From IMG/VR virus record IMGVR_UViG_3300045988_014135: 44,178 nt of DNA; one strand, 5' to 3'. The notes under the pieces are model-generated. The model saw only the letters and a list, made by a program, of their open reading frames with translations, made no database searches and was not told the origin of the DNA. This document shows positions 1 through 41,040 of the stretch, piece after piece; the first letter of the stretch is position 1, and the number at the start of each line of letters is the position of its first letter. Origin of the DNA: a virus. Its lineage: Duplodnaviria > Heunggongvirae > Uroviricota > Caudoviricetes. The position numbers and the translations under genes were made by a program.

Positions 1-143
1 GTAACCGCCGCAGGTGCGGCTACAGTAGCTGACTTTTTAACGCCACCAACTACGCTGGTAGTAGCAGGCGTGACTGGGATATCAAAGTCGCCGAAATCGA
101 CATTCTGAAGGCTGCGCGGCAAGCCTTTTCCGGTCTTGGCCAT
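1..143 (-). CDS. structural protein, N-terminal fragment (gene runs off the window start)
   Basis: Minus-strand ATG at 143-141 (MAKTGKGLPRSLQNVDFGDF...) open to position 1; directly downstream of the capsid gene in the leftward operon; partial. Confidence 0.4.
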   Translation of the reverse strand, partial: MAKTGKGLPRSLQNVDFGDFDIPVTPATTSVVGGVKKSATVAAPAAV

Positions 144-202
144 AATTTACCTCTTAGTAAATGAAAAGAGGGACCGAAGTCCCTCTCGATTATATCTTAA
201 CC

Positions 203-1252
203 TTAAGCACCGACGCCAGTTACCAGGAAGGCAATAGGTACATGCTTACGGTCAACAACACGGTTCCAGTTGGAGGCGTTCGCCAGGTCCTGCCAGGAAG
301 CAGAGCGGGCGATAGTCTCGGTCCCGTTGCCAGTGATTACCGCGCTGGTGAAGCTGTAACCAAACGGATGCAGCAACCAGGTCTTACGGGTCCACAGGGT
401 TTCAACGCCACCACCGTTACCACGAGACGCTTCGCGTTCGTATTCCAGCGGGTTAGACGGGTTGCCCTCGCCGTAACCGATAGCACCGTTACCGAAGATG
501 ATGGAGATGAACTTACGGCTCGGGCTGGGGCCGACTACGGTCATGCTGTCGTCAACAATCACGCGGTAGCCCTGGTAAGTAGCAAACATGGTGTTGTTAT
601 CGGCGTCGCGGATGAAGTCGATAAGCTGCTGTTTACGTGCCTGCGCATATACGAAGCTGTGCATCGCGATAGCGCCCAACACTTCACCGCCGTTGCCCAT
701 CAGCGCATCACCCATAGTCTGGGTAGCGTCGATGAACGCGCCTGCGTCGAAGCCCAGAGTAGCGGACACGTCGATTACCATGTCATTCTGCTCGTGGTAA
801 GCATCGGTGGCGGCTACGTTGTCGTTGTACAGACCGAGCGCGGTAGCAATCAGACGGCGTTGTGCCTGACGCTGCCAGAAGTTATCCAGACGGGACGCTA
901 CGGATTGCAGCGGGTTCTGGCTGGTCAGTTCAACAGTCAAATCCGCCTGGCCGAAACCTTCGTTCAGGTAAGCTACGCGAACGTCCATCTCACCGGTTTG
1001 CACGTTACGCGGGGTGGCGACGTCCTGATATACATCGTTCGAGTAGTTCGGCTCGATAGAGGTATCAATCGCTTTCCAGTACGGCAGAACAGCTTTGTTG
1101 GACGGGCCGTTTGCGATAGCGGCGGCGTACGGAGTCTGGGTCAGAATACCTGACTGGAAGAACGCGGTTTTCTCTACCGGGTCCTCTGTCATGTAAGACA
1201 GAATGACCGATTCTTTACCAGTTACGATATCGCCGATAGTAGTAATTGCCAT
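203..1252 (-). CDS. major capsid protein (candidate)
   Basis: 349 aa ORF directly downstream of the scaffold gene, stop/start overlap at 1252; position and size typical of a major capsid protein; no motif verified. Confidence 0.65.
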   Translation of the reverse strand: MAITTIGDIVTGKESVILSYMTEDPVEKTAFFQSGILTQTPYAAAIANGPSNKAVLPYWKAIDTSIEPNYSNDVYQDVATPRNVQTGEMDVRVAYLNEGFGQADLTVELTSQNPLQSVASRLDNFWQRQAQRRLIATALGLYNDNVAATDAYHEQNDMVIDVSATLGFDAGAFIDATQTMGDALMGNGGEVLGAIAMHSFVYAQARKQQLIDFIRDADNNTMFATYQGYRVIVDDSMTVVGPSPSRKFISIIFGNGAIGYGEGNPSNPLEYEREASRGNGGGVETLWTRKTWLLHPFGYSFTSAVITGNGTETIARSASWQDLANASNWNRVVDRKHVPIAFLVTGVGA

Positions 1253-2284: not shown

Positions 2285-2627
2285 ATCCTGAGATGTGATT
2301 GGCGTTATCGATGGCGGCCTGTTTCAGCTTAACGCGTGCTTCATCGAAAGTGCAGACATTGCGGCCAGGCGTCCTGACGTACTTAACGACTTCCTGCGTA
2401 ATGGTTACGGTGCGGGCAGCACCCTGCTGTTCAGCGACGGCGGCACGGGTGTCGTTTTGTTGCTGCCGTTGTGTTTTCTTCGCTAGCTCCGCCTGTGCTT
2501 TCTGCTGTTGCTGCGAAACGAGATTCGCCCGGCCTTCGTTCCAGCCGCTGCGATACTGGTAGATTCCGTAGCCGTATGTCAGGAGGATGAAACATGCTCC
2601 AGCTACGACAGTTGCGTTAAGATTCAT
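2271..2627 (-). CDS. i-spanin (Rz-like)
   Basis: N-terminal TM helix (VVAGACFILLTYGYGIY) followed by a Gln/Ala-rich coiled-coil periplasmic domain; overlapped by the lipoprotein gene as in Rz/Rz1 pairs. Confidence 0.6.
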   Translation of the reverse strand: MNLNATVVAGACFILLTYGYGIYQYRSGWNEGRANLVSQQQQKAQAELAKKTQRQQQNDTRAAVAEQQGAARTVTITQEVVKYVRTPGRNVCTFDEARVKLKQAAIDNANHISGYDHE

Positions 2628-2878
2628 GTTTCCCCTTTCTCGATAAGTAAAGCCCCGCCTTAAAGCGGGGCGCTAGTCCTTATCATTTAAACATAGAAAC
2701 GGCGTAATCTCAGTAAACCAGTTACTTTTTACACAAGCAATAGAGTATGGCCCTTCCGAACGCGTCAGCGTAACTACACTCAGGACTTACGTCCCGCTCC
2801 GTTACCTGCCCGCGCCGCGGTCGCTTGCTCATACTTCACAAGCTCAGGTGGAGCTTATCATATTTTCAGTGAAAAGTC

Positions 2879-2894
2879 AACTATTCGAATAGTT
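2879..2894. repeat. perfect 16-bp palindrome AACTATTCGAATAGTT
   Basis: Read directly; lies in the 375-bp intergenic region upstream of promoter 2947..2975; half-sites match the AATAG/CTATT promoter dyad. Confidence 0.8.
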
Positions 2895-2946
2895 TATTCC
2901 AACGTTTACAATTGAGTGGAATAACTGGAATACGTAAATAAATAGT

Positions 2947-2975
2947 TTGCGCGCACCAACATAATAGGGTACTAT
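2947..2975 (+). promoter_or_regulatory. sigma70-type promoter TTGCGC-N17-TACTAT with dyad AATAGGGTACTATT
   Basis: -35 2947-2952, -10 2970-2975, 17-bp spacer; dyad 2963..2976; AGGAG RBS and ATG at 3003 follow. Confidence 0.6.
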
Positions 2976-3002
2976 TCAGTTAACTTAAACAGGAGATGAT
3001 AA

Positions 3003-3524
3003 ATGGTTACTACAGTAATTACTTTCCCTGCGTATGTAGGGGCGAAAATATGCAGGGCTAAAAATGATGTTCGCTACTATTTGAACGCTTTTTACATAGA
3101 CCCTGAAGGATTGATAGTGTCTACGGACGGTCATAGATTGTTCGGCGACAATGTGAAGACCAACGTTGAGAAAGGGACTCTCATAGACATCAAAGGGAGA
3201 GAGCCTTCTAAATTTAACTACGCGGAGGTAAACCACGACAACGGCAGTGTATCTTTCTATGACGATAATCGTGCGCTTATATGTACACTTCCGGTAGATG
3301 TTGTAGAAGGAAACTTTCCTGACTGGAGACGCGTGGCGCACATCACACCGGGTGTTGTCGATAGTATAGGGTTCACTCTGCGCTATTTGGCAGACGCGTA
3401 CAAGATTTCTAAGGCATACAAAAATGAAATTGCTCGTTTCGATTTCCAGGACCAAACCAGAGGATGCAAAATACAATTTTCAAACACGGCCTTTATGGTG
3501 TTAATGCCTGCGCGATTTAAATAA
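3003..3524 (+). CDS. truncated beta sliding clamp (DnaN) homolog, domain II plus partial domain III
   Basis: NDVRYYLNAFYIDPEGLIVSTDGHRLF matches the DnaN segment DVRYYLNG...ATDGHRLA as recalled; FPDWRRV ~ FPDYRRV; C-terminal FMVLMPARFK ~ YVVMPMRL; only 173 aa; own promoter, AGGAG RBS and terminator; opposite strand to flanking genes. Confidence 0.6.
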   Translation: MVTTVITFPAYVGAKICRAKNDVRYYLNAFYIDPEGLIVSTDGHRLFGDNVKTNVEKGTLIDIKGREPSKFNYAEVNHDNGSVSFYDDNRALICTLPVDVVEGNFPDWRRVAHITPGVVDSIGFTLRYLADAYKISKAYKNEIARFDFQDQTRGCKIQFSNTAFMVLMPARFK

Positions 3525-3528
3525 AACT

Positions 3529-3552
3529 AAGGCCCCTTACGGGGCCTTTTAT
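3529..3552. terminator. bidirectional intrinsic terminator (AAGGCCCC-TTAC-GGGGCCTT + T-run)
   Basis: 8-bp GC-rich stem, 4-nt loop, T-run on plus strand; between convergent genes 3003..3524 and 3552..4010. Confidence 0.7.
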
Positions 3553-4010
3553 CATTCTGGCTTAGTGACCTTCGCCGCTTTACTGACAGCCTCTACACCA
3601 TCGGCATCAGTAACTTTAACGAAGTATTCACCTGCTGCGTTAACCGTCAGAGACAAAGCCTCTTCCGGGACGTTTACCACTTCCTTCCCGTCTTTGTACC
3701 AGGTCAGCACATACGGCGCTTTGCCCGCCTTAACTTCGACGGTGATGGTGGCGCTACCGTCGACCAGCTCGGTGTCTTTCGGTTGCACAGAGAAATACAC
3801 ATCGCCAGCATCTGCCAGATACGGAATCTCATAAAGCATACCAGCAGCAGAGAGTGCGATACCGGTCTTGTCCGCATACGGCATCTCGTCTACAGGTGTA
3901 CCTAGTACACTTTCATCTTCAACGTAGGTTACGTTCTCACCAGAACCGGATACACGGGCGTACTGGACTACGCGACGCGACGGCACATCAGTTACTTTAA
4001 AAAAGCCCAT
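3552..4010 (-). CDS. Ig-like domain structural protein (possible head decoration)
   Basis: C-terminal pattern YVLTWYKDGKEV...EYFVKVTD resembles bacterial Ig-like domains; sits in the head module. Confidence 0.4.
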   Translation of the reverse strand: MGFFKVTDVPSRRVVQYARVSGSGENVTYVEDESVLGTPVDEMPYADKTGIALSAAGMLYEIPYLADAGDVYFSVQPKDTELVDGSATITVEVKAGKAPYVLTWYKDGKEVVNVPEEALSLTVNAAGEYFVKVTDADGVEAVSKAAKVTKPE

Positions 4011-4013
4011 AAA

Positions 4014-4637
4014 CTAAACCTCTTTCATTGAGTTAATCTTACGTAAGACGCCTTCGAAAAGGCGTGGGTCTATGCTATCGCAAAGGCCTTTGTATTCATA
4101 TGCTAATTCAATTTTTCTATGAAACCAGGCTACATGTGCCTCTTGAGCGGTTTCGTAAGCGCCTATTTGTTCAGATACACAATCCACGGATACTTGGGCG
4201 ATGAATCTTTTCTTTTGTTTATGAAAATGTACCCCAAGCGGGTGTTTGCCTCGAAGAGCGTCGTGGGCTGTGAGGAAAGTGTTAAGGGATTTGGGGATGA
4301 AAACACAGTTAGAAGCGTCATAAACCTTATTTCCTGGATTCAGTAAATCCTTATCTATCTGCCACCCAGGTACATAAAAATTATCAAACCAGACCTTGAA
4401 ATTACTGAACACCAACCAATCGTCCGACACGCGGCAGCCTATATAGGTTCTGTTTCTTTGCTGCCATTTCTTGTCGTAGCACCTCTTTAACATGTTCTTC
4501 CATCCGGCATAGGACGCTATATGCACCCCTCCGTGACTTATCGGTGAAACATCATTAATACCAACCCCAAAAACAATTCCCATATTAAATCCTATAAGAA
4601 AACCCCATGAAGATTGGTCGATGCCAGAGATAGGCAT
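4014..4637 (-). CDS. HNH homing endonuclease with AP2-like DNA-binding domain
   Basis: WKNMLKRCYD...YIGCRVSDDW...QIDKDLLNPGNKVYDASNCVFIPKSLN (HNH-type) and GVHFHKQKKRFIAQVSV...GAYETAQEAHVAW (AP2-like); free-standing between head genes; start uncertain. Confidence 0.55.
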   Translation of the reverse strand: MPISGIDQSSWGFLIGFNMGIVFGVGINDVSPISHGGVHIASYAGWKNMLKRCYDKKWQQRNRTYIGCRVSDDWLVFSNFKVWFDNFYVPGWQIDKDLLNPGNKVYDASNCVFIPKSLNTFLTAHDALRGKHPLGVHFHKQKKRFIAQVSVDCVSEQIGAYETAQEAHVAWFHRKIELAYEYKGLCDSIDPRLFEGVLRKINSMKEV

Positions 4638-5838: not shown

Positions 5839-6006
5839 ATGAACCACCATAAACTGATTACCGCTTTCATCAATAACGGTTGGACTGAGAAAGACGCTTT
5901 TGATGCAGCATACGCGTATAGAAACTGTGACTTGACGCTTGAAGGGGATTCTCAAGAGGATTATGACAAAGCAGTAAGAGAAGAAATGGGTTGCTGGGGG
6001 AGCTAA
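5839..6006 (+). CDS. small hypothetical protein (cassette gene)
   Basis: AGGAG RBS then ATG at 5839; 55 aa; own terminator at 6011; opposite orientation to flanking head genes. Confidence 0.4.
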   Translation: MNHHKLITAFINNGWTEKDAFDAAYAYRNCDLTLEGDSQEDYDKAVREEMGCWGS

Positions 6007-6010
6007 AACT

Positions 6011-6036
6011 AAGGCCCCATAACGGGGCCTTTTTAT
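6011..6036. terminator. bidirectional intrinsic terminator (AAGGCCCC-ATAAC-GGGGCCTT + T5)
   Basis: Hairpin plus T-run read directly; same hairpin family as 3529, 27414, 39844. Confidence 0.7.
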
Positions 6037-11012: not shown

Positions 11013-11097
11013 TTCTCTCTACTCCGTTCTCGTTGTCGATGGAGTAAATATAATAGGGTCGAAGGTAATAGTCAACTAGTCATTGCGGAAAATAGAT

Positions 11098-14299: not shown

Positions 14300-14330
14300 A
14301 TCCTGTCTCTCCTCTCGTTTGTGTAAATGA

Positions 14331-14651: not shown

Positions 14652-14849
14652 CTATTGACCTGTTACACCACCTGTTACACCACCTGTTACACCACCTGTT
14701 ACACCACCTGTTACACCAGCACGGTATTGCACACCAGCTTTCCACGCCCGCCACGCGAGACGCGTCTTAACGTTCAGGTACCCTTTCTTTGAACCTTTGT
14801 TAACCGGCAGACCCTCGACTACAGCCCACCGTTCAAATGCTTCTCTCAT
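14652..14849 (-). CDS. small protein with C-terminal (GVTG)5 repeat
   Basis: 65 aa; C-terminus encoded by five perfect 12-bp tandem repeats. Confidence 0.45.
   Translation of the reverse strand: MREAFERWAVVEGLPVNKGSKKGYLNVKTRLAWRAWKAGVQYRAGVTGGVTGGVTGGVTGGVTGQ
14659..14718. repeat. tandem repeat, 12 bp x 5 perfect copies (CCTGTTACACCA)
   Basis: Counted directly; in-frame within ORF 14652..14849. Confidence 0.95.
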
Positions 14850-15880: not shown

Positions 15881-15905
15881 TCCTCTGTCTCGTTTCGATA
15901 AGTGA

Positions 15906-15934
15906 ATAGTATCCTATTATGTTGGGGTGTGCAA
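15906..15934 (-). promoter_or_regulatory. early promoter TTGCAC-N17-TACTAT with dyad AATAGTATCCTATT
   Basis: About 30 bp near-identical, in inverted orientation, to the promoter at 37186..37214; dyad 15905..15918. Confidence 0.65.
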
Positions 15935-16167
15935 GAGATTAGTTACGTTGCCGTTGTGATTCTTTAGGGAAGGTTGTGCCTTTATTCTTATTACTTGGTA
16001 ACTAAAGGGCAGGCCTTAAGCCTGCCCAATAATCGTTACATTTTTACGGTTGCGAATCTACGGCACATTAAGAAACAGTAGATATTTCAGCGGGTTACTT
16101 CTTTAAATGAGATTTAGATACACTTATCCTTAAACCCCAAGGCAAGCATCTCAGTTGTCTGGGAGGG

Positions 16168-19522: not shown

Positions 19523-19551
19523 TTGACAAGTGAATAGTTCGCTATTATAGT
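19523..19551 (+). promoter_or_regulatory. promoter TTGACA-N17-TATAGT with dyad AATAGTTCGCTATT
   Basis: -35 19523-19528, -10 19546-19551; dyad 19533..19546 inside the spacer. Confidence 0.65.
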
Positions 19552-22353: not shown

Positions 22354-22372
22354 TATCTGAATCAATTTAACT

Positions 22373-22397
22373 AGGGCCCTTCATTGGGCCTTTTTAC
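22373..22397 (+). terminator. intrinsic terminator
   Basis: Stem AGGGCCC/GGGCCT, loop TTCATT, T5 run. Confidence 0.65.
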
Positions 22398-27409: not shown

Positions 27410-27440
27410 AGAAAAGGCCCCGATTGGGGCCTTAGTTTTA
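27409..27440. terminator. bidirectional intrinsic terminator (AAGGCCCC-GATT-GGGGCCTT)
   Basis: Between convergent replication and tail operons; T-rich on both sides. Confidence 0.7.
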
Positions 27441-29432
27441 TCCTAGTTTTGTATACGTCCAGTTAAATGTCGTCGTGCCCTGACTTGTTATCGCTACATC
27501 CCTTCCTGATGCAGAAAACGTTATGAATGCCCCCACTTTTAATGGCGTTAGAGTTAACGCACCATCATACATCGCTAGTTGGGTAGAAGAGTAGTTGGTT
27601 CCGCTATCCGAAGCCCATACACTAATGAGATACATCCCCTGCATATTTGGCAATGTAAACAATGTTGTTTGCGTACTGGCATTTACTAATTGCGTTCCTT
27701 TTGCGGTGTAGAAACCGGGGGTCTGTAGACCAGCGGATGATACTTGTTGGGTGTACCCACCAGATACAAGACCAGATATCGGGGTGCAGAACCAGTTAAC
27801 ATTACCCTGACTAACTACTGATATAACGGGGGTGCCACCTGCAGGCGCGCGCCAGCGTCCGCTGTACACGTCAATTCGGGATGTTGCGTCCTTAGCGTAT
27901 AACGTAACAGGGTATCCAGTTCCGATGTAAGTGATTGCGTTCTCCGACAAGTCATCCTCAGAAGAGTCGATTATAACCTGACTTGTTCCGGATGCCTTTA
28001 TGAAAGAAACGACACCACTTGCCGCGGGGGCTACAGTTTTCATCTGGTTTTGATGAGCTGTTAAGCCAGATATTTTGCCATTAGTGTTCTCAAAATGGAT
28101 AAGAGAACAATCGGAGCCGCCGTCTGTAGAAATGATATTTCCTTCAGCATCAAATCCCATGATGTTAACCGAGTGCGAGTTAACGAAATGCAAACCGGCA
28201 CTCCCGTAAGACCCTCCGGATACGCCTATCGCTGATTGGTCCATAGCGCAGTTGAGCATAGTTACAGACATGACGGCACCAAATTGATAAGGCGAGACGC
28301 ATCCGGATGCGTAGCAAGTCTCCATCAAAATTGTTGTTCCTAGTGTTTTAATAAAGCCATCATGACAATTTCGCGCCCATACGTTTTGTAACTTAGTAAG
28401 GTAAGTTCCGGTGGTGTCGGAGAAACAGCGCCATGCACCATGTACTGTGCAGTTTTTAATCTCAGACATTTCAAGACCAGTAGTACCGGCTTCAGTGGAG
28501 TAGAAATTAAATGCTATCTTCCCACTATTTCCGGTCGTGACGGTTGGCGTATCCCCCGGATTGTAGAATATATACAGTCCGTCGATGAACAGTTGAATCA
28601 TTTTCGTCCCACCGGAAGAGCTGCCCTGAGCGAGCGCGAAAAGGGATATATCTCCGTCAACGGATATAAACGACTGGGCACGGTTGATGCCGTCGGTGTT
28701 CTCGCCGACGATTCTGACGCTATTATTGAAATAGATGGTGGAGTTAACGAAGCCCGTTCCTTTTGGGATTAGCACTGTCTTTTTGGAGTTGCATGCGGCC
28801 TGTATGGCAGCGTAATCAGTCGACTGGGTAAGACTCGTAACAAAGGGGTATACCATCTGGGCTGCTGTAAGAGTAGAGAATTTCTCGCTTAGTGGGTGGA
28901 TGTCACCATCCCATGTAGCGCCGAAGTCATAAATACTTACAGCATCACTTACCTTGCTATGTAGGGTTCTCCCAACGGCTCCGGCCAGTACAGATTTAAC
29001 CCCGACCATGGCGTCGCCTAGTTGCACATCGTCCGTGTTTGCTAAATCATCGCGTAGATATGGGTCGGTCTGCGGCTTCCAGTTAGCGTTACCGACCGGG
29101 TTAAACGATGCAGGGACAACAACCGGAAGCGTACCCGCGTATGAGTACCACGTTTTACTCACCGGGTCATAAACAATTTTGTCACGGTCATTAACAGTTA
29201 GCGTGCCGCCGGTAGAAAAGTCCCACGATACGGGAGAAAAACCAGCGTCACGCAGTACCGCCGGGAGGGTCTTCTGCGTCTGGCCTGTAACAGCATTGGT
29301 CGCGTAATCAATATCTGCACCACCAGCAACCCCGCCTGCTTTACCGGTGATAACCTCGATTTCGAAAATCTGGTGTTTACGTGCGATTTGCATCGACTCC
29401 AGACTTACAACATCACCACATCCGCTTGACAT
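27438..29432 (-). CDS. tail fibre / tailspike (receptor-binding protein candidate)
   Basis: 664 aa, last gene of tail operon; Gly/Ser/Thr/Asn-rich with repeated short beta-strand-like segments. Confidence 0.5.
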   Translation of the reverse strand: MSSGCGDVVSLESMQIARKHQIFEIEVITGKAGGVAGGADIDYATNAVTGQTQKTLPAVLRDAGFSPVSWDFSTGGTLTVNDRDKIVYDPVSKTWYSYAGTLPVVVPASFNPVGNANWKPQTDPYLRDDLANTDDVQLGDAMVGVKSVLAGAVGRTLHSKVSDAVSIYDFGATWDGDIHPLSEKFSTLTAAQMVYPFVTSLTQSTDYAAIQAACNSKKTVLIPKGTGFVNSTIYFNNSVRIVGENTDGINRAQSFISVDGDISLFALAQGSSSGGTKMIQLFIDGLYIFYNPGDTPTVTTGNSGKIAFNFYSTEAGTTGLEMSEIKNCTVHGAWRCFSDTTGTYLTKLQNVWARNCHDGFIKTLGTTILMETCYASGCVSPYQFGAVMSVTMLNCAMDQSAIGVSGGSYGSAGLHFVNSHSVNIMGFDAEGNIISTDGGSDCSLIHFENTNGKISGLTAHQNQMKTVAPAASGVVSFIKASGTSQVIIDSSEDDLSENAITYIGTGYPVTLYAKDATSRIDVYSGRWRAPAGGTPVISVVSQGNVNWFCTPISGLVSGGYTQQVSSAGLQTPGFYTAKGTQLVNASTQTTLFTLPNMQGMYLISVWASDSGTNYSSTQLAMYDGALTLTPLKVGAFITFSASGRDVAITSQGTTTFNWTYTKLG

Positions 29433-37077: not shown

Positions 37078-37185
37078 TCTTTAATCCTTTGGTTAAGAGG
37101 TTACAGGTTAATGGTAAATGCGCCAGACGGGAACCACCCGCTTTTCGTGTGCGACACTAGGCGCAAAATTATTCTATCACATTAC

Positions 37186-37214
37186 TTGCGCACCCCAACA
37201 TAATAGGATACTAT
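37186..37214 (+). promoter_or_regulatory. promoter TTGCGC-N17-TACTAT with dyad AATAGGATACTATT
   Basis: -35 37186-37191, -10 37209-37214; dyad 37202..37215; near-identical to early promoter 15906..15934. Confidence 0.65.
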
Positions 37215-37255
37215 TCACTTACACCAACAATGTTAACTCAAACAGGAGCTACACC

Positions 37256-37447
37256 ATGACAGGTATTACTATGTTCTTCTTAATCATTATCGTTTTAGTT
37301 TATTTTATCCCGTTTTTAGTGGCCCATATGCGCGGACATAAAGCGAAACTGGCGATATTCATGGCTAATCTGTTTCTCGGCTGGGTTCTGCTGCCGTGGG
37401 TATTTATTTTAATCTGGGCTTGCAACTCGAATGTCAAAGAGAAGTGA
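37256..37447 (+). CDS. superinfection-immunity-like small membrane protein
   Basis: 63 aa, two TM helices; YFIPFLVAHMRGHKAK...NLFLGWVLLPWVFILIWA resembles the Imm_superinfect family pattern as recalled; start at ATG 37256 after AGGAG. Confidence 0.5.
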   Translation: MTGITMFFLIIIVLVYFIPFLVAHMRGHKAKLAIFMANLFLGWVLLPWVFILIWACNSNVKEK

Positions 37448-39670: not shown

Positions 39671-39839
39671 AGGCACAATGGGGACAATATACGTTATCCG
39701 CGTATATGACGAAGAATGGGATGAGTGGGTTGATATTTACGCCGTAGGTAGCAAGGAAGAGGCGACAAAAGAGATGACAGAACGGAGTGACAGAGGTCAG
39801 TTAACTAACTTCTACGAAATGCCATTCAAAAGTGAGTGA
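39663..39839 (+). CDS. small hypothetical protein
   Basis: 58 aa from ATG 39663 overlapping kinase stop; last cassette gene. Confidence 0.35.
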   Translation: MREGTMGTIYVIRVYDEEWDEWVDIYAVGSKEEATKEMTERSDRGQLTNFYEMPFKSE

Positions 39840-39870
39840 GAAAAAGGCCCCGAAAGGGGCCTTAGTTTTA
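39840..39870. terminator. bidirectional intrinsic terminator (AAGGCCCC-GAAA-GGGGCCTT)
   Basis: Between the plus-strand cassette and the convergent major tail gene. Confidence 0.7.
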
Positions 39871-41040
39871 TGCGTAGGTGATACGCTGGATAACAATAGA
39901 CGACTGGTACTGATTGCCGGTAGCCTGGCCTTCGATGGACTGAGTGATTGACTCTGGTCCGCCAATCTCAGGCGTAACCGCCGTAAGCTCTGCGCGTTTC
40001 AGGCTGAAAGACATAGCCCCGTTTACCCCCGCCAGAATAGAGTTAATCTCTACCTGCTGTTCGTTGATAAACTTCTGAATCATCGCCATGTCGTACAGCT
40101 TACCAGAGATGGAGAATGTGTTAGCTGCGCGGCCACGTTCCACGAACGCAACACTACTGTTGCCGAGTTCGAACTGCGCGGAAGCACCGTTGTCGTTGGT
40201 GATGGTCAGAGTATCGCAACGCAACGGCGTAGAACCGTCGAACACAGACACATCTACGGATGAGAACGGCTCATCGGTAAACGTCACCCGGGAGAAATCA
40301 GAACCTGCTGGCGGTGCAGAAAGAATTTCCTGACTCAGACCGATGAACGGGAAGCTGCCTGTCACCATCGCGTTTACGGCCTGTTCAATGGTGAAACCGG
40401 AGATTTCCACGCCTTTGGTCAGCATGTACGCGTCAAGGTTCCCGCACTGTCCTTTGAACCATGTCAGGATGGAGAACGTCTTACATTCGTTACCGGTTTC
40501 CAATTTATCGCCTGTTTTAGCGTCGGTGGTTACAGTCTCTGCTGTCAGCGTGTGCTGGATACCCGCACCCGTAACTACAAGAGCAGAAACCGCGGTCACG
40601 ATAAACGGTTTTGCGTTGTCGCCGGTTAAGTCGGTGAATGCAATCAGGTCGCCAACCTCTACACCGTCAGTAATGAAGCTACCGGCAGCGCGGGTGAATG
40701 TTTTACCTGCTGGAGCGACCGTAATTTCAGCACCCGTAATCTCTACCCCGTCCTGCCACGTAGAAGTCATAGCACCCGCAAGGAAATCATCCTGGCTACG
40801 TGAGCTAAGTTCGATGGCGTACTCCCCGCTAACCTGTTTGTTACCGGTGCGGATGGATGTGGTTTCTCTGCTGCCGTCGAGTTCGTTGGAAGTCAGCGCA
40901 TCGCGGGTTACCGCAGGAACACCGCCAGTGTTACGCAACGGCGACCAGACCGGGCTAGTCGGTGTTACGCCAGGGGTCACTTCCGCCACATAGAATTGCG
41001 CGGTATTCGCGCCCTTAAAAGGAGTTGTAGCCATATTCAC
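39868..41040 (-). CDS. major tail protein (candidate)
   Basis: 390 aa, last gene before the chaperone/TMP block in the leftward operon; by position. Confidence 0.5.
   Translation of the reverse strand: MNMATTPFKGANTAQFYVAEVTPGVTPTSPVWSPLRNTGGVPAVTRDALTSNELDGSRETTSIRTGNKQVSGEYAIELSSRSQDDFLAGAMTSTWQDGVEITGAEITVAPAGKTFTRAAGSFITDGVEVGDLIAFTDLTGDNAKPFIVTAVSALVVTGAGIQHTLTAETVTTDAKTGDKLETGNECKTFSILTWFKGQCGNLDAYMLTKGVEISGFTIEQAVNAMVTGSFPFIGLSQEILSAPPAGSDFSRVTFTDEPFSSVDVSVFDGSTPLRCDTLTITNDNGASAQFELGNSSVAFVERGRAANTFSISGKLYDMAMIQKFINEQQVEINSILAGVNGAMSFSLKRAELTAVTPEIGGPESITQSIEGQATGNQYQSSIVIQRITYA

Follow-up and report, generated by a model that had tools for sequence, protein, structure and literature searches.

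We report here a truncated homologue of the bacterial beta sliding clamp DnaN, encoded at positions 3003 to 3524 of a 44,178-nucleotide stretch of viral DNA (Caudoviricetes; IMG/VR record IMGVR_UViG_3300045988_014135), which is called the window below and is a complete or nearly complete genome of a Kagunavirus (Guernseyvirinae, an E. coli siphophage). All clamp partners insert a clamp-binding motif (QL[S/D]LF-like) into the hydrophobic cleft between domains II and III of beta, and in sequence this cleft is kept almost residue by residue in the short protein, which we call the mini-clamp. To judge from the alignment of its relatives, selection in the family is concentrated on this cleft rather than on the exposed edges and the surface bared by the deletion. 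Our favoured reading, to which we give a probability of about 45%, is that the mini-clamp acts as a soluble monovalent receptor, or decoy, for the clamp-binding motifs of host proteins.

Homology, architecture and cleft conservation

The mini-clamp is homologous to DnaN and has the clamp fold. With a 61-sequence family alignment as input for both hhalign and AlphaFold2, the family profile matches E. coli DnaN with a probability of 99.5% (E = 2.6e-23), the match spanning beta 140-366 with beta ~254-311 and ~197-210 deleted, and the monomer model has a predicted local distance difference test score (pLDDT) of 95.7 and a predicted template modelling score (pTM) of 0.91. Foldseek against the PDB returns beta clamps and nothing else for this model, and models in BFVD match it at template modelling (TM) scores of 0.72-0.87. 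The initial annotation had called the product a truncated DnaN homologue and had quoted three motifs for it. Profile search and predicted structure bear out the call, and in phmmer alignments to PDB sequences all three motifs are found and align to E. coli beta as claimed: DVRYYLN..TDGHRL (amino acids (aa) 22-46) corresponds to beta 150-177, FPDWRRV (aa 105-111) to beta 241-247 and MPAR (aa 168-171) to beta 362-365, the aligned segments being aa 16-47 with beta 144-178, aa 99-117 with 235-253 and aa 117-171 with 312-365. The single sequence scores 15.7 bits (E 0.018) with Pfam PF02767, below the gathering score of 27, and 17.3 bits with TIGR00663, below the cut-off of 137.65. No curated family for the short form was found in Pfam or NCBIfam; PADLOC gives no match for the mini-clamp either, leaving a relationship to defence systems unsupported. 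The coding sequence and its parts are as follows.

3003..3524, + strand: mini-clamp coding sequence, 173 aa, ATG start (list of open reading frames (ORFs), alignments to DnaN)
3003..3338, + strand: aa 1-112, equivalent of beta domain II (beta ~125-248) without its second inner helix (beta ~197-210) (hhalign, DSSP)
3066..3140, + strand: cleft motifs DVRYYLN (aa 22-28) and TDGHRL (aa 41-46), equal to beta D150-N156 and T172-L177 (204-member alignment)
3315..3335, + strand: FPDWRRV (aa 105-111), equal to beta F241-V247; P242 and V247 line the pocket and R246 adjoins the bound peptide (PMC3716654, alignment)
3339..3521, + strand: aa 113-173, last beta-alpha-beta-beta-beta motif of beta domain III (312-366) (phmmer, hhalign, mafft with E. 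coli DnaN)
3498..3515, + strand: C-terminal strand VLMPAR (aa 166-171), equal to beta V360-R365, cleft floor and Gln-binding backbone (alignment, PMC3716654)

Thus beta 125-253 (minus ~197-210) and 312-366 are represented, and beta 1-124 and ~254-311 are missing. The order follows the beta topology, with domain II, the II-III linker FPDWRRV, the last motif of domain III and the native C-terminus MPAR. In the model, DSSP assigns a strand at 3-7, a helix at 8-17, a short helix at 25-28 and strands at 30-33, 37-41 and 45-50 in the N-terminal part; strands at 59-63, 73-77, 82-86 and 92-101 in the middle, without any helix between 59-63 and 73-77; and a short helix at 109-112, a helix at 126-138 and strands at 145-147, 155-158 and 164-167 in the C-terminal part. 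An hmmsearch against the PDB had placed the C-terminal third at beta 248-290, one stretch extended into the first motif of domain III; this placement was rejected in favour of beta 312-366, because the IGF..Y..D helix motif, the terminal MPxR and the cleft position all fit the last motif. The losses are those that had been claimed from the sequence, namely domain I and much of domain III, the latter being its first half. The two halves of the beta head-to-tail dimer interface, which we take to lie around F106/L108 in domain I and around I272/L273/E298-E304 in domain III, both fall in the absent regions, therefore the canonical head-to-tail dimer ring cannot form, in agreement with the annotation.

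A clamp domain consists of two beta-alpha-beta-beta-beta motifs related by a radial pseudo-dyad. The mini-clamp has three such motifs and would be a contiguous arc of ~90 degrees, about one quarter of the ring, with its three retained sheets as ring neighbours. Since three motifs are a quarter of the ring's twelve, one may think of self-assembly, in which C-terminal half-domains paired about a two-fold axis rebuild a clamp domain and two dimers join around DNA in a tetrameric ring of D2 symmetry (4 x 90 degrees), or alternatively of an open three-domain dimer arc with one cleft per face. If true, self-assembly would give a new sliding-clamp architecture working without a loader, and in the model the counterpart of the swapped first strand, residues 113-125, indeed lacks a sheet partner. 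However, the single-chain model already has high confidence (pTM 0.91) and a compact shape, no loader gene is annotated in the closest relative, the missing inner helix would leave 8 lining helices versus 12, and the putative interfaces show no conservation, hence we regard both the ring and the arc as highly improbable.

The conservation was derived from 204 family proteins, taken from the profile search described below, aligned with E. coli DnaN by mafft. Overall, the top residue has a mean frequency of 0.85 in the cleft columns versus 0.36 in the remaining columns. Conservation reaches at least 70% in the following columns (beta numbering): D150, R152, Y153, Y154, L155, N156, G157, V170, T172, D173, G174, H175, R176, I194, R205, D238, G239, F241, P242, D243, Y244 (Trp here), R245, R246, V247, Y323, V324, D326, N329 (Lys here), M362, P363 and R365. 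In the numbering of the mini-clamp, the first two cleft motifs have R24 in 98%, Y26 in 97%, T41 in 97%, D42 in 98%, G43 in 99%, H44 in 95% and R45 in 93% of the members; FPDWRRV has P106 in 100%, R110 in 95% and V or I at 111 in 91%; and the C-terminal strand has M168, P169 and R171 each in 94-95%, with V/I/L at position 166 in 90%.

These columns coincide with the residues seen to hold peptides in beta. In the crystal structure of the clamp with a UmuC peptide, the hydrophobic pocket is made of V247, L177, V360, P242 and M362, and the peptide forms hydrogen bonds to G174, M362 and P363 and contacts R152, H175 and R246 (PMC3716654). R152, G174, H175 and L177 contact clamp-binding peptides, the carbonyls of M362 and P363 bind the motif glutamine, and cleft residues bind peptides of DNA polymerases II, III, IV and V (Pol II to Pol V) in crystal structures (PMC3716654). 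All ten pocket and contact residues have an identical or conservative counterpart in the family, the top residue reaching 57-100%, and 90-100% when conservative variants are counted. Among them, P242 is kept in 100%, M362 and P363 in 95%, R152 in 98% and G174 in 99%, and the conservative sets are L/M/I at L177 (93%), V/I at V247 (91%) and V/I/L at V360 (90%). It is because the cleft residues stay as in host beta across diverged lineages that the mini-clamp is expected to bind clamp-binding motifs.

Two roles had been suggested in the initial annotation, titration of clamp-binding partners and capping of the host clamp. Titration fits the strongest pattern, which is the cleft-centred conservation, while capping finds no positive support. 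As a capping poison, the mini-clamp would pair its domain II-like free edge strand with the domain III edge of host beta, mimicking the A|B sheet junction of the beta dimer interface, and so block closure or loading. The pseudo-sixfold symmetry of the clamp provides a geometric argument for such pairing, and the model has a long exposed strand, aa 92-101, which is the equivalent of the strand pairing across domain boundaries; monomerised beta is also bound more tightly by delta. But no column in aa 65-101 reaches 70% conservation, so that the edge strands are unconserved, the canonical interface residues all lie within the deleted segments, and the conserved feature is the cleft, which capping does not need. 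Like self-assembly, which is also without positive support, capping is in our view quite improbable.

Cassette, cargo slot and promoter

Positions 2600-4100 share 97% identity with phage Schulenburg (MK931438), in which the homologous gene is annotated "DNA polymerase III sliding clamp"; flanked by terminators, it stands between the spanin genes on one side and a gene for Hoc-like capsid decoration on the other, and runs on the strand opposite to them. In GenBank, alleles 97-99% identical to the mini-clamp carry a sliding-clamp or beta-clamp-domain annotation, and the names used in other close relatives are "beta clamp domain-containing protein", "DNA polymerase III beta subunit", "hypothetical protein" and "RusA-like Holliday junction resolvase". 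In the window too the gene is an isolated cassette transcribed against its surroundings, as had been noted, with the i-spanin and Hoc-like neighbours both on the - strand. The elements of the locus are listed below.

2271-2627, - strand: i-spanin gene, neighbour on the strand opposite to the mini-clamp
2947..2975, + strand: predicted sigma-70-type promoter, -35 TTGCGC (2947-2952), 17-nt spacer, -10 TACTAT (2970-2975) (from the sequence)
2962..2977, no strand: operator dyad TAATAGGGTACTATTC (AATAG-N4-CTATT; here AATAG-GGTA-CTATT), overlapping the spacer and the -10 (pattern count)
2991..2995, + strand: ribosome-binding site (RBS) AGGAG, 7 nt before the ATG (sequence; sister-phage alignment)
3529..3548, no strand: bidirectional intrinsic terminator, GGCCCC-loop-GGGGCC with T-runs on both strands, common to the convergent Hoc-like gene (terminator scan)
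3552-4010, - strand: Hoc-like decoration gene, neighbour convergent with the mini-clamp

The G+C content of the mini-clamp gene is 43% versus 50% for the window. Against other Kagunavirus alleles its ratio of nonsynonymous to synonymous substitution rates (dN/dS) is 0.11-0.27, therefore its strand and frame are under purifying selection. Between the Hoc-like and the head-morphogenesis genes lies an HNH endonuclease gene (4014-4637, - strand), which is present in Schulenburg, has no match in the Cornellvirus, SE1 and Dhillonvirus loci, and is probably a mobile homing endonuclease.

What goes beyond the earlier reading is above all that the cassette is a cargo slot, a point that also matters for the mechanism. 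A search with the capsid gene gives 463 related phage records (at least 80% coverage), and one with the mini-clamp cassette only 24. In many Kagunavirus and Jerseyvirus genomes both flanks match at ~90% nucleotide identity and the mini-clamp ORF does not. The slot takes up window positions 2628-3551, between the spanin/36-aa ORF and the Hoc-like gene, and its content in three sister phages is as follows.

Jerseyvirus S100: a Dam-type adenine methyltransferase
Kagunavirus fEg-Eco06: a 67-aa ORF
BUCT825: nothing

In the alignment, the promoter, operator, leader AAACAGGAG, RBS and ATG are kept in the S100 and fEg-Eco06 cassettes; homology between the sister phages breaks right after the ATG and resumes at the terminator directly 3' of each stop codon. 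The mini-clamp is 43% identical to the Cornellvirus allele, versus 65-90% for the neighbouring genes, and 42% identical to that of the unrelated Dhillonvirus, versus 25-41% for the head genes. In Salmonella phage SE1 (3998-4513), a 67%-identical mini-clamp cassette sits between the scaffold gene and the spanins, not between the spanins and the Hoc-like gene, therefore the cassette has moved within the head module. All this shows that the mini-clamp is a horizontally exchanged accessory gene (moron) and not a core part of the replisome; as its place is taken by other cargo or left empty in sister phages, it is dispensable for the PolA, primase-helicase and single-stranded DNA-binding protein (SSB) replisome which they share. 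The methyltransferase found in the same slot fits a role in host interaction or counter-defence. The slot with its alternative cargo shows how phages exchange early accessory genes, and it offers ready-made isogenic comparisons among mini-clamp, methyltransferase and empty forms.

The mini-clamp promoter had been said to share an early dyad motif, and this is confirmed: AATAG-N4-CTATT overlaps the promoter and recurs at early and replication promoters. The promoter itself, with a -35 matching the consensus at 3/6 positions, was not listed by a consensus promoter scan. With at most one mismatch, the pattern AATAGNNNNCTATTA has 16 strand matches (~9 sites) in the window versus 0.61 expected, and 0/100 shuffles reach 16. 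Besides the mini-clamp site, operator sites occur at 14329, 15904, 19489, 19532, 21651, 25419 and 37201, with a weaker one at 11066, and the promoters concerned belong to the early small-gene operon, to the replication genes and to an Imm-like cassette. On the whole, the 16-bp palindrome TAATAG-N4-CTATTA marks two promoter classes, TTGACA-N17-TATAGT and TTGCRC-N17-TACTAT. In the former class the dyad lies in the spacer of the promoters at 19523, 21652 and 25420, which precede the gp2.5-like SSB, PolA and the VRR-NUC/helicase block. The further copies of the mini-clamp type of promoter-operator are two.

15899..15935, - strand: third copy, TTGCAC-N17-TACTAT, 86-97%, driving a leftward operon of small early ORFs
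37186..37221, + strand: second copy, 36 nt, 89%, driving the Imm-like/phosphoesterase cassette inside the tail module

At the third copy a divergent TCGATA-N17-TATGTT promoter lies on the + strand, and the second copy is followed by the leader AAACAGGAG and an ATG at 37257. From these likenesses the mini-clamp would belong to an operator-controlled regulon of early and replication genes, probably governed by a Cro-like or helix-turn-helix (HTH) protein of the phage.

The Imm-like 'superinfection immunity' ORF, with its usual start at 37118 (37118-37447), contains the promoter-operator in its own 5' part, and ATG 37257 behind AAACAGGAG is the better start; together with the phosphoesterase and small ORFs it makes a second early-type unit embedded in the tail module. 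A perfect palindrome upstream of the mini-clamp, AACTATTCGAATAGTT (2879-2894), was considered as the shared motif and rejected, being unique in the window even with 3 mismatches. Its 16 bp hold the operator half-sites in reversed arrangement and are conserved in the sister phages, including the one with the empty slot; it might have a role in the late transcript that runs leftward. Near the operator site 14329, within the region of small early ORFs, the perfect 12-nt tandem repeat ACCTGTTACACC occupies 14658-14718 in five overlapping copies (four 25-nt copies spaced 12 nt are listed), and could be a coding repeat or iteron-like. As for the terminators, near-identical GC-hairpins (AAAACTAAGGCCCC-loop-GGGGCCTTTT), several of them bidirectional, are located at module boundaries: 3522-3550, 6004-6032, 22366-22394, 27412-27441 and 39837-39871.

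A possible decoy or tether

On the decoy reading the mini-clamp, a stable non-ring fragment of a proteobacterial-type beta clamp made of domain II and the C-terminal half of domain III, would be produced early, from a sigma-70 promoter with the operator of the early and replication promoters. Its cleft would bind the clamp-binding motifs of host clamp clients, and in the infected cell the host beta ring would lose some of these clients by competitive sequestration. The greatest effect may be on those that are weak and monovalent, such as the translesion synthesis polymerases, Hda, MutS/MutL and RecB, while the bivalent complex of Pol III core and clamp would be much less affected by a monovalent decoy. 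A decoy that spares the bivalent Pol III core might therefore be compatible with phages needing host Pol III. Peptide binding, the monomeric state and the early timing are inferences here, and so is what the ligands are and what becomes of them.

The phage itself seems not to supply the ligands. The strict pattern Q[LVIM][SDNGEAT][LM]F has no match in any ORF of at least 35 aa in the window, and loose clamp-binding patterns match in spurious antisense ORFs only and in none of the replication proteins, although motif scans of this kind are weak evidence. With no phage-encoded motif of this type, the ligands would therefore most likely be host clamp clients. Among these RecB is a candidate target, as its motif QVEMEF, which docks into the canonical cleft, is required for RecBCD to degrade DNA to the full extent (bioRxiv 10.1101/2025.08.20.671105); this motif makes the candidate anti-RecBCD route directly testable.

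Several points weigh against the decoy. The pocket is monovalent and the affinities typical of such motifs are micromolar, so high expression would be needed to compete. The T1-like phages that carry the gene, in which no polymerase is found, presumably need host Pol III and its clamp, and an indiscriminate decoy would be harmful to them. Several metagenomic phages have it next to genes of replication (DUF5906 helicase, PolA, DnaA_C protein). The early timing is suggested by promoter similarity only, and the one Kagunavirus transcriptome found, that of K1B4, yielded nothing usable on the mini-clamp gene. Finally, the family is less acidic than beta and has conserved Lys/Arg on the channel helices, which fits DNA tethering equally.

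This last point leads to the main rival, a UL42-like non-ring tether or adaptor, in which the former channel face binds DNA and the cleft holds a motif-bearing polymerase or repair enzyme on phage DNA, no loader being required; the client could come from the host (Pol III, Pol I or ligase) or be a phage enzyme whose motif is non-canonical. The isoelectric point (pI) is shifted upward, with 8.4 for the mini-clamp and a median of 6.8 for the family versus 5.25 for E. coli beta, and raised pI has been linked to direct DNA binding in loader-less viral clamp homologues (Kazlauskas and Venclovas, PMC3201878). Nevertheless the shift is modest, a quarter of the family (25%) lying below pI 6. Conserved Lys/Arg are found at the positions aligned to beta E140 (68%), H148, N329 (89%) and K332, on helices that line the channel in beta; yet one channel-lining helix is lost in the subfamily of the mini-clamp. 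The gene context is similarly divided. For a tether speak the operator common to the mini-clamp and the replication promoters, the absence of an annotated clamp loader in the closest relative, Schulenburg, the presence of the gene in T1-like phages without a polymerase found, and its place beside helicase, PolA or DnaA_C genes in some phages. However, most sister phages with the same PolA replisome are without the gene or have unrelated cargo, therefore the mini-clamp is not needed for replication here, and the PolA, helicases and SSB of the phage are without a clamp-binding-like motif. Weighing these, we consider the tether unlikely.

If the decoy is true, the virus copies the docking site of a host replication and repair hub to soak up its clients, and we found no described example of such a cleft-decoy takeover in the literature. 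The explanation would then cover at least 255 sequence clusters in phages of enterobacteria, Vibrio, Burkholderia, Pantoea and others. The clamp cleft is targeted by antibiotics (griselimycin and related compounds), and the mini-clamp would then also offer a natural, monomeric scaffold of it with a size of 20 kDa.

Family, annotation and known systems

The mini-clamp belongs to a large family of short proteins. An exhaustive profile search gives at least 255 clusters (50% identity) at E<=1e-30; the best 150 of them are all 141-255 aa long and none is a full-length DnaN. Homologues are present in 237-295 phage records. In Dhillonvirus the gene is again a counter-oriented cassette in the head module, together with an Nmad5 protein. 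In the T1-like group (Bas81, Seszw, 64795_sal3 and others) it occurs with a ParB-HTH protein, and no DNA polymerase gene was found in the mini-clamp-bearing T1-like genomes examined. In addition, homologues are found in phages of Vibrio, Pantoea, Serratia, Burkholderia and Acinetobacter; in metagenomic podophages, in an early region adjoining DUF932, with genomes that have Prim-Pol and PolA; and in other contigs beside a DUF5906 helicase, DUF6378 or a DnaA_C protein. No constant partner gene was found, the neighbours varying among ParB-HTH protein, Nmad5, DUF932, DUF6378, DUF5906 helicase and radical SAM.

Compared with DnaN (E. coli P0A988; PF00712+PF02767+PF02768; TIGR00663), the mini-clamp shares the homology, the fold and the cleft residues, of which R152, Y154, L155, T172-L177, P242, R246, V247, Y323, V360, M362, P363 and R365 are kept. 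It has 173 aa versus the 366 aa and three tandem domains of DnaN, falls short of a functional ring in domain count, interfaces and score thresholds, and phage Schulenburg, 97% identical, has no annotated gene for a clamp loader. Short phage homologues of polIII-beta covering the second and third domains were noted in 2011 and were set aside as probably horizontally acquired and dispensable (Kazlauskas & Venclovas, PMC3201878). The mini-clamp is a member of this group of phage proteins (~170-250 aa, with homology restricted to the central and C-terminal parts of DnaN), in PHROG 3007; unlike that description, it has only the last half of the third domain, and its subfamily also lacks one helix of domain II. 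Among viral processivity factors, HSV-1 UL42, HCMV UL44, KSHV PF-8 and EBV BMRF1 (of herpes simplex virus 1, human cytomegalovirus, Kaposi's sarcoma-associated herpesvirus and Epstein-Barr virus) have the clamp fold in common with it. However, factors of the UL42/UL44 type are essential polymerase subunits made of two full domains, with a DNA face that is strongly basic, whereas the mini-clamp has 1.5 domains, is mildly basic by its pI, is accessory, and meets no partner motif in the phage PolA. Twort Gp168 (PMC8565349) and MuC of Mu (PMC12867686) are phage proteins that likewise manipulate the host node formed by the beta clamp with its clients. They are without homology to the mini-clamp and bind the host clamp, at the DNA channel or the cleft, whereas the mini-clamp would mimic the cleft and bind the clients.

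The mini-clamp had been presented as not known to be characterised in this phage type, and for its function this appears to hold: the full-text literature search gave annotation-level mentions only and no functional study. It does not hold for the object, which is known from annotated relatives and from the 2011 survey (PMC3201878). The paper on fBC-Eco01 treats the homologue as an ordinary clamp (PMC9825357), and the BASEL-completion paper does not mention the mini-clamp. Cleft-only conservation and the cargo-swap cassette are absent from the papers found. What is new here is not the object itself but its exact architecture, the restriction of its conservation to the cleft, the regulon defined by the operator and the cargo-swap cassette.

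The best PHROG match of the mini-clamp is PHROG 3007 (E 3.7e-35, aa 13-172), whose label 'RusA-like Holliday junction resolvase' has been copied into many GenBank records (e.g. PQ423993, PQ850630, NC_054645). This label is the ground for taking the gene for a RusA-like resolvase, as Pharokka-style annotations do; a mis-called or decaying gene was considered as well. The resolvase was rejected, as 0/61 members hit the RusA Pfam model and 50/61 hit PF02767, and fold and profile comparisons yield beta clamps only, with no RusA among the fold matches; purifying selection and the family of at least 255 clusters speak against decay. Either is almost certainly wrong. The RusA label of PHROG 3007 is thus unsupported and spread by automated annotation, and should be corrected. 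Two substitutions would help to name such genes: among the 204 members, Trp replaces beta Y244 in 88% (mini-clamp aa 108, window 3324-3326) and Lys replaces beta N329 in 85%, or Lys or Arg in 89% (aa 134, window 3402-3404), and the two together would serve as a simple signature to tell mini-clamps from true DnaN.

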